IMG/VR virus record: IMGVR_UViG_2585427741_000004
Coordinates: 1-6,654 of that record
From: a virus
Taxonomy: Duplodnaviria; Heunggongvirae; Uroviricota; Caudoviricetes
DNA: 6,654 bases
Strand: one strand, 5' to 3'
Part shown: positions 1-6,654 of the stretch, piece after piece
Position numbering within the stretch: position 1 is the first letter of the stretch
Layout: each line of letters opens with the position of its first letter
Notes under the pieces: model-generated
Database searches by the model: none
Seen by the model: the letters and a program-made list of their open reading frames with translations, nothing else
Told to the model about the DNA's origin: nothing
Program-made: the position numbers and the translations under genes

Positions 1-603
1 GCTTATTACAACATAAGGCAGGAGTTTAATTACTCAACTGAAATTACTGATTTCATGAAAGCGGTATATTTCCTGTATCTCAATCGTCACGGTTACCGTG
101 GTTTATGTCGCTATAACAAGAGCGGGCATTTCAACATTCCCTACGGTAATTATAAAAATCCGTATTTCCCTGAAAAAGAAATTCGCGCATTTGCAGAAAA
201 GGCCCAGCGAGCAACGTTTATCTGCGCCAGCTTTGATGAAACGCTGGCGATGTTGAAGGCGGGGGATGTGGTGTATTGCGATCCGCCGTATGACGGCACG
301 TTTTCCGGTTATCACACTGACGGCTTCACTGAAGATGACCAGTATCACCTGGCATCCGTTCTTGAATATCGATCATCAGAAGGTCATCCGGTCATTGTTT
401 CTAACAGTGACACATCCCTGATCCGTTCGCTGTATCGCAATTTCACTCACCACTACATCAAGGCAAAACGCAGCATCGGCGTGTCAGCTGGCGAGAGTAA
501 ATCTGCAACAGAAATCATTGCTGTTTCCGGGTCGCGCTGCTGGATGGGATTTGATCCTTCGCGTGGCGTGGATAGTTCTGCTGTGTACGAGGTGCGTGTA
601 TGA
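1..603 (+). CDS. dam: DNA adenine methyltransferase (Dam family, GATC N6-adenine MTase), 5'-truncated by the window edge
   Basis: Frame 1 is open from base 1 (no stop before the first Met at 55), so the gene starts upstream of the window. The translation closely parallels E. coli Dam as I recall it: [16 protein letters not shown]...FNIPYG.YK.PYFPEKE...FAEKAQ, then the catalytic motif IV DPPY (nt 277-288), then the HTDGFT and VIVSNSDT blocks. Stop TGA at 601-603. Confidence 0.88.
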
Positions 604-3014
604 GTCATGACGATATGAGCAACTCTAGCGGCTTTAACGAGGCTGCCGCAGCATTTTCATGGAACGGCCCGAAAAAGGCCATTAACCCTTATCTGGATCC
701 GGCGGAAGTTGCGCCGGAGTCTGCACTTTCAAACCTGATCACTCTGTACGCTGCCGATAACGAGCAGGAACAACTGCGCCGCGAGGCACTGAGTGAGCAG
801 GTCTGGGAGCGTTATTTCTTTAATGAATCCCGTGATCCTGTCCAGCGCGAAATGGAGCAGGATAAGCTCATTAGCCGGGCAAAGCTGGCGCATGAGCAGC
901 AGCGTTTTAACCCGGACATGGTCATTCTGGCAGATGTCAGCGCCCAGCCTTCTCATATCAGCAAGCCGCTGATGCAACGTATCGAATACTTCAGCAGCCT
1001 GGGCAGGCCAAAGGCTTATTCCCGCTATTTGCGTGAGACGATTAAGCCATGTCTGGAGCGACTGGATTGTGTACGTGACAGTCAGCTATCTGTTTCTTTC
1101 CGTTTTATGGCAAGCCATCAAGGGCTGGAGGGGCTGCTGATCCTGCCTGAAATGAGCCAGGATCAGGTGAAACGCCTGTCCACCCTGGTAGCAGCGCATA
1201 TGAGCATGTGTCTTGAGGCCGCTTGTGGTGATTTGTACGCCACCGATGACGTTAAGCCAGAAGAAATCCGCAAGACATGGGAAAAGGTGGCTGCGGAAAC
1301 CCTGCGTCTGGATGTTATCCCGCCTGCGTTTGAGAAACTTCGTCGGAAAAGAAACCGCCGCAAACCTGTGCCCTATGAACTCATACCGGGTTCGCTGGCA
1401 CGTATGCTTTGCGCCGACTGGTGGTATCGAAAATTGTGGAAGATGCGTTGCGAATGGCGGGAAGAGCAGTTGCGTGCTGTCTGTCTGGTCAGCAAAAAAG
1501 CATCTCCCTATGTCAGCTATGAAGCAGTGACGCATAAACGTGAGCAGCGCCGCAAGTCGCTGGAGTTTTTCCGTTCTCATGAACTGGTGAACGAAGACGG
1601 AGACACGCTGGATATGGAAGATGTGGTAAACGCCAGCAGCAGCAACCCGGCACATCGCCGCAATGAGATGATGGCCTGCGTTAAAGGTCTGGAGCTTATC
1701 GCGGAAATGCGCGGTGACTGCGCCGTTTTCTACACCATCACCTGTCCGTCACGTTTCCATTCCACGCTCAATAACGGCAGACCAAACCCGACCTGGACAA
1801 ATGCGACGGTAAGACAAAGCAGTGATTATCTGGTCGGCATGTTTGCTGCATTTCGTAAGGCGATGCACAAAGCCGGATTGCGGTGGTATGGCGTGCGGGT
1901 GGCTGAGCCGCATCATGACGGTACTGTGCACTGGCATCTCATGTGCTTCATGCGTAAAAAAGACCGCCGCGCCATCACTGCATTACTGCGTAAGTTTGCC
2001 ATCCGTGAAGACCGCGAGGAACTGGGCAATAACACGGGGCCACGCTTTAAGTCTGAGCTGATTAACCCGCGCAAAGGAACGCCGACAAGCTACATCGCGA
2101 AATACATCAGTAAGAACATTGACGGGCGTGGTCTGGCTGGCGAGATCAGCAAGGAAACGGGTAAATCTCTGCGTGATAACGCTGAATACGTTAATGCCTG
2201 GGCGTCTCTGCATCGTGTTCAGCAATTCCGCTTCTTTGGCATTCCGGGGCGTCAGGCTTACCGTGAACTGCGATTGCTGGCTGGTCAGGCGGCAAGGCAA
2301 CAGGGTGACAAAAAAGCAGGTGCACCGGTACTGGATAACCCGCGCCTTGATGCCATTCTGGCTGCAGCTGATGCTGGTTGTTTTGCCACCTACATCATGA
2401 AGCAGGGCGGCGTACTGGTTCCCCGTAAATATCACCTCATCAGAACCGCTTATGAAATCAACGAAGAGCCGACCGCCTATGGCGATCACGGCATTCGTAT
2501 TTATGGCATCTGGTCACCCATTGCAGAGGGTAAGATCTGCACTCATGCAGTGAAGTGGAAAATGGTTCGTAAGGCCGTTGACGTTCAGGAGGCGGCAGCC
2601 GACCAGGGCGCTTGCGCCCCTTGGACTCGTGGCAATAACTGTCCCCTTGCTGAAAATTTGAACCAACAGGAGAAAGATAAATCAGCTGATGGGGACACCA
2701 GAACGGATATTACCCGCATGGATGACAGGGAGTTGCACGATTACCTGCACAGTATGAACAAAAAAGAGCGCCGGGAACTGGCTGCAAGGTTACGTCTGGT
2801 GAAACCGAAACGGCGTAGAGACTACAAACAGCGAATTACAGACCATCAACGACAGCAGCTCGTCTATGAACTGAAGTCCAGAGGATTTGATGGCAGCGAG
2901 AAAGAGGTCGATTTACTCCTTCGCGGCGGCAGTATTCCATCAGGAGCAGGCTTGCGTATCTTCTATCGGAACCAGCGTCTGAAGGAAGATGATAAGTGGC
3001 GGAACCTGTATTAA
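600..3014 (+). CDS. A: Phage replication initiation endonuclease, P2 gpA-like (HUH rolling-circle initiator), 804 aa
   Basis: 2415-nt ORF. The ATG at 600 overlaps the dam stop (ATGA at 600-603) and has a GAGG Shine-Dalgarno at 589-592 with a 7-nt spacer. The translation carries an HUH-type metal-binding motif, VHWHLMCFM (HWH at nt 1929-1937, residues 444-446), and a paired-tyrosine motif, [12 protein letters not shown] (Tyr at nt 2091-2093 and 2103-2105, residues 498 and 502, Y-x-x-x-Y). These are the hallmarks of phiX174 gpA / P2 gpA superfamily nicking initiators. Size and position match P2/186 gene A. The start could alternatively be the Met at 615. Confidence 0.85.
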
Positions 3015-3083
3015 TTACGCGGGTTAACAATTCGTGCTCTTAATAATACCAGGAATATCAGGCCGATGAACGTAAAAAAACGT

Positions 3084-3110
3084 TTTACATCAGTAAGATT
3101 ATTATATACT
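3084..3110 (+). promoter_or_regulatory. Putative sigma70 promoter for the orf62-dinI cassette (-35 TTTACA at 3084-3089, -10 TATACT at 3105-3110)
   Basis: The -35-like hexamer TTTACA and -10-like hexamer TATACT lie in the AT-rich gap about 60 nt upstream of the orf62 start. The spacer is 15 nt, shorter than the optimal 17. The LexA box overlaps the -10 and the presumed start site. Exact hexamer assignment is uncertain. Confidence 0.35.
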
Positions 3111-3126
3111 GTAAATATAAACAGTG
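3107..3126 (+). promoter_or_regulatory. LexA operator (SOS box)
   Basis: TACTGTAAATATAAACAGTG has perfect CTGT (3109-3112) and ACAG (3121-3124) arms separated by an 8-nt AT-only spacer. It matches the E. coli LexA consensus TACTGTATATATATACAGTA at 17 of 20 positions, and it overlaps the putative -10. Confidence 0.75.
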
Positions 3127-3166
3127 GTTATGTATACAGTATTGCTTTGGTGTCATAGGAGGAAAG

Positions 3167-3355
3167 ATGCAGGACTATTTTTTGGAGTCTTTGAAGCTCC
3201 AGCGCATTGATTTTTTTCTTAAGCTTGTAGCGGCTAGTGAGTGTAGTGATGAAGAGAAGGGGCTGGCTCTGCAGTGGGTTTCTGAATTAACTGATGAACT
3301 CATGGCAAAAATCAGAACCCATGAATACAACCGCTCAATGGATGTCATCAGTTGA
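3167..3355 (+). CDS. Hypothetical small protein (62 aa), first gene of the SOS-controlled cassette
   Basis: ATG at 3167 is preceded by a strong Shine-Dalgarno AGGAGG at 3157-3162 (4-nt spacer). It sits immediately downstream of the LexA box and promoter and is followed 11 nt later by the DinI-like gene. The translation is acidic (SDEEKG, SELTDELMAK) and I recognise no family motif. Confidence 0.55.
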   Translation: MQDYFLESLKLQRIDFFLKLVAASECSDEEKGLALQWVSELTDELMAKIRTHEYNRSMDVIS

Positions 3356-3366
3356 GGTGACTTTTT

Positions 3367-3600
3367 ATGCGCATTGAAATAATGATCGATAAAGAGCAGA
3401 AGATTAGCCAGTCTACCCTGGACGCCCTTGAATACGAGCTTTACCGCAATCTGCGCCCCCTATATCCAAAAACGGTAATTCGCATCCGCAAAGGTAGCTC
3501 TAACGGTGTGGAACTGACCGGACTGCAACTGGACGAAGAAAGGAAGCAAGTGATGAAAATTATGCAGAAAGTGTGGGAAGACGACAGCTGGCTGCATTAA
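3367..3600 (+). CDS. dinI: DinI-family protein (DNA-damage-inducible protein I-like), 77 aa
   Basis: The translation MRIEIMIDKEQ...LDALEYELYRNL...YP...VIRIRKGS...ELTGLQLDEERKQVMKIMQKVWEDDSWLH aligns along its whole length with E. coli DinI as I recall it (MRIEVTIAKT...IDALAGELSRRI...FP...VSVRY...TKEDKQRISEILQETWESADDWFVSE). A GAGGTG Shine-Dalgarno lies about 8 nt upstream. A LexA box upstream is what a DinI-family gene is expected to have. Confidence 0.82.
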   Translation: MRIEIMIDKEQKISQSTLDALEYELYRNLRPLYPKTVIRIRKGSSNGVELTGLQLDEERKQVMKIMQKVWEDDSWLH

Positions 3601-3734
3601 GAAACGTTGCTGGCGTCTGAACTTGCTTCTGGCGTCAGCAAGGTTGAACAACGAGCTGTGCGAGGCGTTAGCTCTGTGGTGCATGTCTATACCGCATGAG
3701 ATCGCATGATCGTTTGAGGATCGTTTTTGCTCAG

Positions 3735-3758
3735 GCCCGCCAGAACTGGCGGGCTTTT
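3735..3758 (+). terminator. Rho-independent terminator closing the orf62-dinI cassette
   Basis: A perfect 9-bp GC-rich stem, GCCCGCCAG (3735-3743) and CTGGCGGGC (3746-3754), with a 2-nt AA loop, followed directly by TTTT (3755-3758). Confidence 0.75.
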
Positions 3759-3803
3759 GCGTAGATCATGCAGGTGCATGAAAACCACTACATAAAGCGG
3801 GCA

Positions 3804-3822
3804 GGCGTGGCGGGGATACGAG
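3804..3822. other. Candidate cos (cohesive end) site of a P2/186-like phage
   Basis: GGCGTGGCGGGGATACGAG is a 19-nt GC-rich motif in the non-coding gap between convergent terminators, exactly where P2-family phages place cos (between the right-end accessory genes and Q). From memory the P2 cohesive end is GGCGAGGCGGGGAAAGCAC and the 186 end begins GGCGTGGCGGGGA. The first 13 nt here match that pattern. The comparison relies on recalled sequences and was not computed. Confidence 0.5.
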
Positions 3823-3910
3823 CGCGCGCAACGGGGTAAAATGGCCAAAATCCGGCACAGCCTCTGGCCCGCTGGCGGCCTCATTTAGTGGAGGGGGGGA
3901 GATGTCAGGG

Positions 3911-3947
3911 CAAAAAGAAACGCCCCGCAGAATGCTGCTGAGGCGTT
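3911..3947 (-). terminator. Putative rho-independent terminator downstream of the portal gene (- strand)
   Basis: On the - strand, a hairpin with AACGCC / GGCGTT outer arms (+ coordinates 3919-3947, with an inner GCAG/CTGC stem) is followed by a T-rich run TCTTTTT (the + strand A-run at 3911-3918). It lies about 36 nt past the Q stop codon. The stem is imperfect. Confidence 0.45.
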
Positions 3948-3982
3948 GTGAGAGTTGGTCGGTTATTGATGTTATGAGTATG

Positions 3983-5023
3983 TCAGCTTCGTTTGCCCTT
4001 AAGTCCTAAGTCATAGGCTTCAAAACGGATAACCTCTTCATCCAGCCAGTCATTCAGCTCCTGCAGTCGCTTTTGCAGGGGCATCAGTTCATTGCGGACG
4101 AAGACACGGCTCGCTTTTTCCACATCCCCAAAGCCGCCAGTGTTGTTGGGAATGATGCCCATCATTTGCGGCGGTACGCGGTGAGCCGCCATCATGTCAT
4201 CGCGGCTGACGTTCTTGATGTTCAGAAATTCATCCTTCGCCGCGACTTCCGACAACGGGATAATCTGAATGCCATCTTTTTTGCCGTTAGGCGAGTACAT
4301 AAACAGGTTGCGGAAGTTGCCCGGTCCTTTAGCACTTTTCATTGCCTTGCGGATGTTGTTCACATCCTCCTGGTTCTGTGCGGCGTCGGTCATGTACATG
4401 ATGAAGCCTGCGTGGCTGCCGTTAATGTAATACTTGCGGCGGAACAGCGTGGCGGATTCGTTGAGCAGAGCTGACGGAATGGCAGAAAGGTAACCCGGCA
4501 GACCATAAATCTCCTGGTTGATATCCGGCTCCATCAGGTGGAAGACGTTACCTTTTGTGAACTGATACGGCTGTGTCGTCAGGCTGTATTGCACAAACCA
4601 GTATGTTTCAAGGTCAAGCCCGCGTCGGGTGTATTTTGCCAGTGCAGGCTCCAGCGAAATAACTTCACCAAAGCGGTTCGTGCGTTTCTCCAGGTAGGCG
4701 TTACCAAAAACCAGATAGTCCTGCACAAAACGGGTAAATGCCTGCTGGCTGAGAAGGCGATGTGGAATATAGGTACTGCTGATAATGTCACGCTTAACAC
4801 TGATCGGGGAGCTGTGGTGCACGGCGGCGCGGAAGGTGCGCGCCAGTCCGTCAAAGCTGACGGGCGGCTCATACCAGCGATCCATCTGTACGCATTCCAC
4901 ATAGTCCAGCAGTTCGCGGCGGTCCAGTACAGGAATGGGATCACCAAAGCTGAAAGCCTCCGCAACGGGTTTTTTAGTTTCTTCTGCAGTTACGGTTTCG
5001 CCTGGCGCGATATGTTCTTTCAT
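3983..5023 (-). CDS. Q: Phage portal protein (P2 gpQ-like), about 346 aa
   Basis: Large - strand ORF whose size and position (immediately downstream of the large terminase gene, next to cos) match the portal gene Q of P2-family phages. The likely start is the ATG at 5023-5021 (MKEHIAPGE...). The ORF track begins one codon upstream at a TTG. The start overlaps the terminase stop (ATGA). Confidence 0.78.
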   Translation of the reverse strand: MKEHIAPGETVTAEETKKPVAEAFSFGDPIPVLDRRELLDYVECVQMDRWYEPPVSFDGLARTFRAAVHHSSPISVKRDIISSTYIPHRLLSQQAFTRFVQDYLVFGNAYLEKRTNRFGEVISLEPALAKYTRRGLDLETYWFVQYSLTTQPYQFTKGNVFHLMEPDINQEIYGLPGYLSAIPSALLNESATLFRRKYYINGSHAGFIMYMTDAAQNQEDVNNIRKAMKSAKGPGNFRNLFMYSPNGKKDGIQIIPLSEVAAKDEFLNIKNVSRDDMMAAHRVPPQMMGIIPNNTGGFGDVEKASRVFVRNELMPLQKRLQELNDWLDEEVIRFEAYDLGLKGKRS

Positions 5024-6654
5024 CAAAAAATCTCCACAATATTGCTGGTATTGGCGGACTCGCCCTGCAGCGGTTCGTTAAACAGTGCGTGCATTGTTGC
5101 CCAGGCCAGATCGGCATGGCTGGCTTCTTCGCTGCGGCTGGCTTCATAGGTCGGGCGGTTGCCACTGGCAGTGGTAGCGCGACGGATTGCCATAAATGAC
5201 TGCGCAATGTCGGTGTGCCCGGCGTCAAACTCCAGACGGCGGTGGCTGATAATGTCGTAGGCCTTGAGTACCAGGGCGTTTTTAACGTTGGGGTTGTAGA
5301 CAAACTCCCTGACGGCAGGAAAAAACGCTTTCACGTTCTCGTAAACCCCGTGACCGACGCCGGTCGAGTCGATGCCGATATAGGTCACGTTGTACTGTTC
5401 GGTCAGTTTTTTGATGGCGTCAGCCTGGGCGCGGAAGTCCATTCCGCGCCACTGGTGACGCTCAAGAATGCGGAACTTACCGCCCGGCACGGCTGGCGGC
5501 GCCACCACCACGCATCCGGCGCTGTCGCCGTTCTGCGTACCTTTCGCCGGGTCATAACCGATCCACACTTCGCGCCAGCCAAACGGGCGCAGGGCCAGTG
5601 CATGAAAGTCGGTCCAGACTTCCCAACTGTCCACCATGCACGCCTGCAGCTCGCTGAGTGGGAACACAGACGCGAGATCGTCCACGAACTCACACATCAG
5701 CAGGTTCTGGTATTCGTCCGGGCTGTACTCCATGCGCAACTGGTCGAGGTCGAACAGGTTACAGCCGCCGCGCACCGCATCTTCCACAGTGACTATCTGG
5801 CGGTACTGCCCGTCTGCGCACAGCAGGCCGGGGGCCAGATTGCTGTGGGACCGGTCGATGTCCACCTTATCGGCTTTGTTGCGCCCTCGGTTGAACAGCG
5901 CACCGGACCAGAACGGATAAGCACTGTGTGTCAGGCTGGATGGCGTGGAAAAATAGGTTTGTCGCCATTTTTTGTGAATAGCCATACCGGAAGCCACTTT
6001 GCGCAGCTCCTGGAATTTCGGTATCCAGAAATATTCATCCAGATACAGGTTGCCGTGGTAACTCTGGGCCGTGCGGGCATTGGTGCCGAGGAAGTACAGC
6101 GTGGCCCCGTTAGGAAGCACCATCGGATCGCCTTTCAGCTCCACCTCCACTTCTTTGGCGAAGTCGATGATGTACTGCTTAAAGACGTGGGCCTGAGCCT
6201 TGCTGGCGGAAAGGAAAATCTGGTTACGCCCGGTTAGCAGGGCGTCAATCAGGGCTTCACGGGCAAAATAGAAGGTCGCACCGATCTGGCGTGACTTCAG
6301 CAGGTTGCGGATGCGGTTGGTTTTTCCGGCTTCCCACCAGTGGCGCTGGTAGTTGAACATGGAGGAATGGAAGATTTCTTCCAGCTTCTCAATCTGTTCA
6401 TCGGTGAAAACGTTCTTTTCCGGCTGACGACGCGGGCCTTTGTTGCGGTTGGCGACGTTAGGGTTTAAGTCGGCTTCGTTGCCGCCATTGTTAAACTTGC
6501 CGATCCGCGCATGGCGCTCCGACTGGCGCGCCAGCAGGTCAATCTCTTTGAAATCTTTCCCTTCTTTGTGCTCCTTCATAATGAGCTGGCAGTAGCGTGC
6601 GGCGGTGGTGAGCTGCATCTGATCCAGCGGCCCATAGTCACCCCACTTGTCGCG
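5023..6654 (-). CDS. P: Terminase large (ATPase) subunit, P2 gpP-like, N-terminus beyond the window
   Basis: The - strand frame is open from the window edge (6654) to a TGA stop at 5025-5023. The 12 codons upstream of the first in-window Met (6618) contain no stop, so the true start lies outside the window. Gene order P then Q on the same strand, with coupled stop/start, matches the P2 late operon. The assignment rests on size, synteny and overall resemblance to P2-family terminases; I did not verify a Walker motif. Confidence 0.75.
   Translation of the reverse strand, partial: RDKWGDYGPLDQMQLTTAARYCQLIMKEHKEGKDFKEIDLLARQSERHARIGKFNNGGNEADLNPNVANRNKGPRRQPEKNVFTDEQIEKLEEIFHSSMFNYQRHWWEAGKTNRIRNLLKSRQIGATFYFAREALIDALLTGRNQIFLSASKAQAHVFKQYIIDFAKEVEVELKGDPMVLPNGATLYFLGTNARTAQSYHGNLYLDEYFWIPKFQELRKVASGMAIHKKWRQTYFSTPSSLTHSAYPFWSGALFNRGRNKADKVDIDRSHSNLAPGLLCADGQYRQIVTVEDAVRGGCNLFDLDQLRMEYSPDEYQNLLMCEFVDDLASVFPLSELQACMVDSWEVWTDFHALALRPFGWREVWIGYDPAKGTQNGDSAGCVVVAPPAVPGGKFRILERHQWRGMDFRAQADAIKKLTEQYNVTYIGIDSTGVGHGVYENVKAFFPAVREFVYNPNVKNALVLKAYDIISHRRLEFDAGHTDIAQSFMAIRRATTASGNRPTYEASRSEEASHADLAWATMHALFNEPLQGESANTSNIVEIF

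Follow-up and report, generated by a model that had tools for sequence, protein, structure and literature searches.

The two-gene cassette lying between replication gene A and the cohesive-end site of this phage DNA is, as we hold with high confidence, the SOS-induction operon of a P2-family prophage of the 186/Fels-2 type, present in its split (tumA-tumB) form. The window, i.e., the whole stretch of 6,654 nucleotides analysed here, is part of such a prophage (Peduoviridae) and carries the 3' part of a Dam-type methylase gene (55-603; ORF list and Pfam search), replication gene A (600-3014; Pfam Phage_GPA, 3.5e-128) and, on the minus strand, the portal gene (3983-5026) and the large terminase gene (5023-6618). 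Gene A is followed by a p95-type promoter with a LexA box, a 62-aa ORF (orf62), a DinI-family ORF, a hairpin and the cos site GGCGTGGCGGGGATACGAG (3806-3824, no strand assigned), which was placed by visual alignment with the annotated 19-nt cos of 186 and its right-end flank and marks the end of the A-to-cos interval. The original prediction of a self-contained, LexA-controlled unit of two genes was borne out, the ORFs, the promoter and a unique LexA box all being present. The 746-nt interval shows 100% identity with several E. coli chromosomes. Of 5426 complete E. coli genomes, 1144 contain it at the megablast level, as do 56 phage records, for the most part from Klebsiella, Escherichia and Salmonella.

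The promoter, read from the sequence on the plus strand at 3084-3112, consists of a -35 hexamer TTTACA (3084-3089), a 17-nt spacer and a -10 hexamer TACTGT (3107-3112). This layout matches that of the annotated p95 promoter of 186 (TTCACA, 18 nt, TACTGT, with the LexA site beginning at the -10 hexamer), and the promoter is kept nearly identical in Fels-2 and E. coli HS. It was not called by a generic sigma-70 scan because of its weak -10 hexamer. The LexA (SOS) box TACTGTAAATATAAACAGTG (3107-3126, plus strand) begins at the -10 hexamer, which supplies its first six bases, and the overlap of promoter and LexA box anticipated in the original prediction is thereby confirmed. In this 20-mer, 17 of the 20 bases agree with the LexA consensus, with matches in 0 of 200 shuffles (0.00 expected), and the pattern CTGT-N8-ACAG occurs a single time in the 6.6-kb window (3109-3124; chance expectation 0.07). 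In the 186 record a putative LexA site is annotated at the corresponding place. Just 3' of the box, at 3127-3141, a further ACAGTA half-site (GTTATGTATACAGTA) was noticed; its ACAGTA is retained in Fels-2 and E. coli HS, the preceding bases being variable, and no full CTGT-N8-ACAG box is formed there. This element may serve as a second, weak half-site for LexA, or be no more than 5'-UTR sequence.

The first gene of the operon (3167-3355, plus strand, with the Shine-Dalgarno sequence AGGAGG at 3157-3162) encodes the 62-aa protein that had been presented as unassigned and novel, a description that our profile searches overturned. Matches of orf62 were obtained to phrog_698 (3.6e-38), phrog_8554 (2.4e-8) and phrog_1993 (2e-3), and the first 70 residues of 186 Tum match phrog_1993 (1.5e-23), phrog_8554 (3.4e-12) and phrog_698 (5.9e-6). 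TumA of phage PSP3 (60 aa), annotated as "similar to 5' end 186 tum; UV induction of prophage", defines phrog_1993 (2.7e-32) and belongs with the 186-like sequence branch, not with phrog_698 as orf62 does. By hhalign, columns 4-43 were aligned with columns 4-43 and the single conserved Cys was placed in register (P=4e-4), with a probability of just 34% from two shallow alignments. An exhaustive HMMER search of 1.84 billion representatives revealed 86 relatives of orf62, nearly all of them stand-alone proteins of 55-75 aa, several of which carry the motif ERIELIARL...C..DKE.A..WIAEL, visibly resembling its counterpart in Tum, IERVEMIARL...C..DREIALNLIAE. An HMM built from diverse orf62 relatives scored 29.4 bits against residues 7-43 of 186 Tum and 30-37 bits against stand-alone "Tum protein" relatives (E 1e-7 to 1e-5, computed with Z set to 1e6), and the reciprocal HMM of the Tum N-terminus scored up to 39 bits against distant members of the orf62 family. 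Pairwise BLASTP of orf62 gave no alignment with either 186 Tum or PSP3 TumA, the identity to the N-terminal module of 186 Tum being about 23-25%; the homology therefore rests on profiles and intermediate sequences, and it is at the profile level only that the first product of the operon is related to the N-terminus of 186 Tum and to PSP3 TumA. Taken together, the profile and HMM evidence places orf62 in the Tum N-terminal (TumA) family as a diverged member, and by these sequence comparisons it is homologous to the antirepressor module at the N-terminus of 186 Tum.

Pfam and NCBIfam hold no family for orf62, and a PDB sequence search with it returned no match. Structure prediction for the 62-aa protein alone, proposed earlier as a route to its function, was successful in that a confident AF2 model was obtained, a two-helix hairpin with a pLDDT of 90.5, and uninformative as to neighbours, since Foldseek against the PDB returned generic helical hairpins only, none at E<=0.001. 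RefSeq, GenBank phage records and PHROGs (phrog_698) list the protein as 'hypothetical protein' or 'unknown function', and naming it Tum/TumA would sharpen the prediction of SOS-inducible P2-like prophages. A homologue with 89% identity carries the UniRef name 'Levan regulatory protein', which is probably a propagated misannotation. In addition, a 1205-aa protein with a Walker-A-like GEPGAGKT motif contains nine stretches that match the orf62 profile (E=6e-9), possibly through helical repeats and not through homology.

The closest relatives of orf62 connect it to published genetics. It is 98% identical to STM2728 of Fels-2 (62 aa) and shares 61 of 62 residues (98%) with ECHS_RS04495 of E. coli HS, which in that genome is a 62-aa "hypothetical protein" located between gene A and a DinI-like gene. 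According to the Phollow paper (PMC12055606), deletion of tum in DuoHS, a prophage of E. coli HS, leaves neither mitomycin C lysis nor virion foci, and lexA(Ind-) likewise abolishes both; the supplementary table gives DuoHS tum as locus tag ECHS_RS04495 with an in-frame deletion. Since orf62 is identical at 61 of 62 positions to the deleted DuoHS tum, the "candidate novel component" is a known induction switch, and the suggested bearing of the cassette on prophage induction is upheld by the requirement published for this 98%-identical orthologue in DuoHS. The switch in question belongs to a prophage type that about one in five complete E. coli genomes carries and that many prophages of Klebsiella and Salmonella represent as well. 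For Fels-2 and PSP3, PMC3121763 describes a tum gene that a stop codon divides into two, the upstream one being the antirepressor and the downstream one a DinI homologue; the primary source for the Fels-2 split is Bunny et al. 2002 (PMC151935), here cited through PMC3121763. What the operon is, how LexA controls it and what the small protein does had hence all been published before, and the cassette, identical in content to the well-characterised 186-type SOS operon, loses the novelty claimed for it and carries little weight as a discovery.

The second gene (3367-3600, plus strand, with the Shine-Dalgarno sequence GAGGTGA at 3354-3360) encodes a 77-aa protein, TumB, whose predicted assignment to the DinI family was confirmed by Pfam DinI (PF06183; 79.8 bits against a cut-off of 24.2, 1.9e-22). 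TumB shares 41% identity with residues 71-145 of 186 Tum (E=3e-24) and gives a sequence match to the structure of host DinI (E. coli, PDB 1GHH; 6e-6), a protein of the same Pfam fold family in which the C-terminal acidic helix of the WEDDSW type is likewise conserved. It scored 41.7 bits against the NCBIfam DinI equivalog NF007893, below the cut-off of 111, and is therefore a phage DinI-like paralogue and not DinI proper. The DinI-like module stands directly downstream of the antirepressor module in the window and is fused to it in 186; PSP3 tumB, annotated as "similar to dinI and 3' end of 186 tum", and Fels-2 STM2726.1, a DinI-family gene annotated as similar to PSP3 TumB, occupy the same position as the window's tumB.

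The close spacing of the two genes raises the question of which product is the inducer. The stop codon of tumA and the Shine-Dalgarno sequence of tumB overlap (TGAGGTGA, 3353-3360), which makes translational coupling possible, and no complementation of the DuoHS tum deletion was seen in the text of PMC12055606. On these grounds the DinI-like protein could be taken as the functional inducer, acting for example on RecA or on CI, with orf62 as a leader or accessory peptide and the DuoHS phenotype arising from a polar or translational-coupling effect on tumB. We consider this very improbable. The deletion primers of PMC12055606 create an ATG-TGA fusion directly after "ATAGGAGGAAAG" and keep "GGTGACTTTTATGCGCATTG" intact, and the tumB Shine-Dalgarno sequence is retained; the upstream gene of PSP3 is reported as an antirepressor (PMC3121763); non-polar deletions of the dinI homologues of Gifsy prophages had no measurable effect on induction (PMC3121763); and in the 186 record truncated DinI-like products of Tum are described only as 'modulating' induction. 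With TumA as the antirepressor, TumB most likely modulates the RecA filament and SOS signal and is itself unneeded for induction, a role that we infer as part of the best explanation of the operon.

The target of the antirepressor is suggested by phage 186, whose Tum is an antirepressor sequestering CI (PMC7708051; PMC3121763). Binding of CI by Tum and the resulting block of its DNA binding go back to Shearwin 1998, as cited in PMC3121763 and PMC7708051, and the 186 record describes the 146-aa tum product with the words "expression repressed by LexA; inhibits CI DNA binding". The cI gene of the present prophage lies outside the window, and its cognate repressor was deduced from relatives: E. 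coli HS and PE15 carry the same CI (WP_001047320.1), which is 33% identical to 186 CI (E=7e-38), and the PE15 cassette is 100% identical to that of the window. Because these relatives carry a 186-type CI, TumA probably binds CI in the window's lineage too. The divergence of the CI proteins is comparable to that of TumA from the N-terminus of Tum, as co-evolution of the two partners would lead one to expect.

In a lysogen, host LexA bound to the box over the -10 hexamer would keep the promoter off. Upon DNA damage RecA would become active, LexA would cleave itself and the operon would be transcribed; TumA, a two-helix protein of 62 aa, would then, by analogy with 186 Tum, bind the non-cleavable 186-type CI and keep it off its operators, allowing lytic growth. 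The process would be reversible, with tum being turned off again as LexA re-accumulates, and the co-transcribed 77-aa TumB would correspond to the C-terminal half of 186 Tum. The anatomy of the operon, the homology to Tum and the need for the orthologue and for LexA cleavage in mitomycin C induction are the parts of this scheme established here or in the cited work.

The SOS operon of 186 lies in the same place, downstream of gene A and before cos, and comprises p95, the LexA site, tum, a partial terminator, orf97 and a terminator. The two operons are alike in the LexA box beginning at a TACTGT -10 hexamer, in the N-terminal antirepressor and DinI-like modules and, through the window's relatives, in the repressor. 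They differ in that 186 fuses both modules in one 146-aa protein, with extra internal starts annotated, whereas the window has two genes, and in that orf97 and the t95a/t95b terminators of 186 are missing from the window, whose terminator has a different sequence. The 186 record also lists a 76-aa product from an internal GTG start (5293-5523 in our copy of the record, L004) that "modulates SOS induction" and equals a stand-alone TumB in extent and size. If this product is made, the fused and the split arrangements would give similar sets of proteins.

The split arrangement of the window is shared with PSP3, with Fels-2 (STM2728 followed by STM2726.1) and with DuoHS (tum, ECHS_RS04495, followed by ECHS_RS04500), the Fels-2 and DuoHS proteins being 98% identical to those of the window. 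Given that 62 and 77 aa together come close to the 146 aa of 186 Tum, and that the two ORFs stand in different frames 11 nt apart, the pair might be regarded as a recently frameshifted, decaying copy of a fused tum. Such an origin is extremely improbable: the 62-aa ORF and tumB each have a Shine-Dalgarno sequence of their own, that of the 62-aa ORF being strong; the 62-aa length is kept in hundreds of clusters from Escherichia, Salmonella, Klebsiella, Enterobacter, Pectobacterium, Lonsdalea and others; stand-alone 'Tum protein' forms of 63-78 aa are common in the 186-like branch; and the split form is functional in DuoHS (PMC12055606). Conservation and genetics together refute a frameshifted pseudogene.

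The same regulatory logic is found in prophages Gifsy-1/2/3 of Salmonella, which carry LexA-controlled dinI-antirepressor (gfoA/gftA)-irsA operons, in which LexA represses a small antirepressor and a DinI homologue and the repressor acted upon is of the non-cleavable kind (PMC3121763). The Gifsy operons differ in having dinI first, i.e., in reversed order, in their lambdoid backbone and in the family of the repressor, and their comparison with the window's operon concerns regulatory logic.

Downstream of tumB, RNA folding points to a putative intrinsic terminator of the SOS operon at 3734-3758 (plus strand), where the stem-loop GGCCCGCCAGAACTGGCGGGCT, with a GC-rich stem of 9 bp (3734-3755), runs into TTTT (3755-3758). 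The hairpin was not listed by a terminator scan, and the strong terminator of the original prediction is only moderately supported, standing on folding and missed by the scan. Fels-2 and E. coli HS retain the block 3681-3831, in their case on the 3' side of the orf97 homologue. Folding further revealed a conserved stem-loop without a U-tract in the 3' UTR of the operon (3603-3645, plus strand), located directly after the tumB stop; a conserved GGTTGAACAACGAG...GCGAGGCGTTAGC block follows it and extends to about 3675. Homologous stem-loops occur after orf97 in 186 (L004 6347-6414), where the element is unannotated, and after tumB in PSP3 (about 5560-5625 of its record, L005). Between the window type and the 186 and PSP3 types, 5-6 pairs are changed on both sides with the pairing kept, a covariation drawn from three distinct sequence types, and several G-U pairs in the stem fit an RNA of the plus strand only. 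An Rfam search of the window at gathering thresholds gave no match. The stem-loop may serve to stabilise or process the mRNA of the SOS operon. It and the second gene could each have a regulatory role of their own: TumB, via the RecA filament, could set the duration of LexA cleavage, and with it the threshold or reversibility of induction, and the RNA element could control the SOS transcript, through its stability or through read-through into cargo such as orf97. We regard these roles as doubtful.

The cassette had further been viewed as independently acquired accessory cargo, anti-phage or host-modulating, in a variable A-to-cos hotspot, with orf62 as its novel effector. This proposal has something in its favour, as relatives do carry variable genes in the A-to-cos/Q interval (orf97 in 186, a gene for a TIR-domain protein in phage 500465-1, one for a Hypoth_Ymh-domain protein in 813R9, and a pair of ORFs in Fels-2 and in E. 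coli HS), the GC content of the cassette is below that of its flanks and orf62 is 'hypothetical' in databases. Nevertheless, we judge it to have very little chance of being correct. Across the relatives compared, the tumA-tumB pair is constant and the variable genes are inserted downstream of it, so that the A-to-cos comparison speaks for a conserved induction module of the 186/Fels-2/PSP3 lineage and not for imported cargo; PADLOC found no defence similarity for either cassette protein; and the homology of orf62 to Tum, together with the requirement for its orthologue in induction, stands against a novel effector. Known-defence similarity and variable presence among similar phages, as a defence gene would display, are both lacking, and the defence-cargo reading is largely refuted by the constancy of the pair, the PADLOC result and the Tum homology. 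The AT-richness itself is real and graded: GC rises from 33.6% in the intergenic stretch through 42.9% in orf62 to 47.0% in the DinI-like gene, compared with 53% for gene A. The low GC fails as a sign of recent acquisition because the same gradient is common to the versions of 186 (41.5/42.4/47.6 against 51.8) and PSP3 (35.0/43.2/43.6 against 52.2).

The expected variability of the interval was recovered in part, being real in relatives, situated downstream of the cassette and absent from the window, in which the slots are empty. Mapping against Fels-2, E. coli HS, PE15, 813R9, 500465-1 and 186 located the real cargo slots of the lineage after tumB and after cos. The first lies between the tumB stop and the terminator (3599-3680), inside the SOS operon; 186 has orf97 there, Fels-2 and E. 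coli HS have a homologue of orf97, and in the window the slot is reduced to 82 nt. In 186, genes of the orf97 type are co-transcribed from the LexA-controlled promoter. The second slot lies between cos and the portal gene (3832-3982, the portal stop codon being at 3983), the conserved sequence after cos ending at about 3832-3842. It contains the TIR-domain gene in 500465-1, the Hypoth_Ymh-domain gene in 813R9, a 1674-nt ORF in PE15 and STM2723.1 in Fels-2. Fels-2 and DuoHS thus have both slots occupied, the one after tumB by an orf97 homologue and the one after cos by a second cargo gene, and the window has neither gene.

In the PE15 prophage, a Panacea-domain protein and a hypothetical protein are encoded between the integrase and the attachment-site flank (L008 3177-4405), and E. 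coli HS has a different small ORF at this position. Judging from these two sequences, the integrase side is another variable locus of the lineage, lying outside the window.
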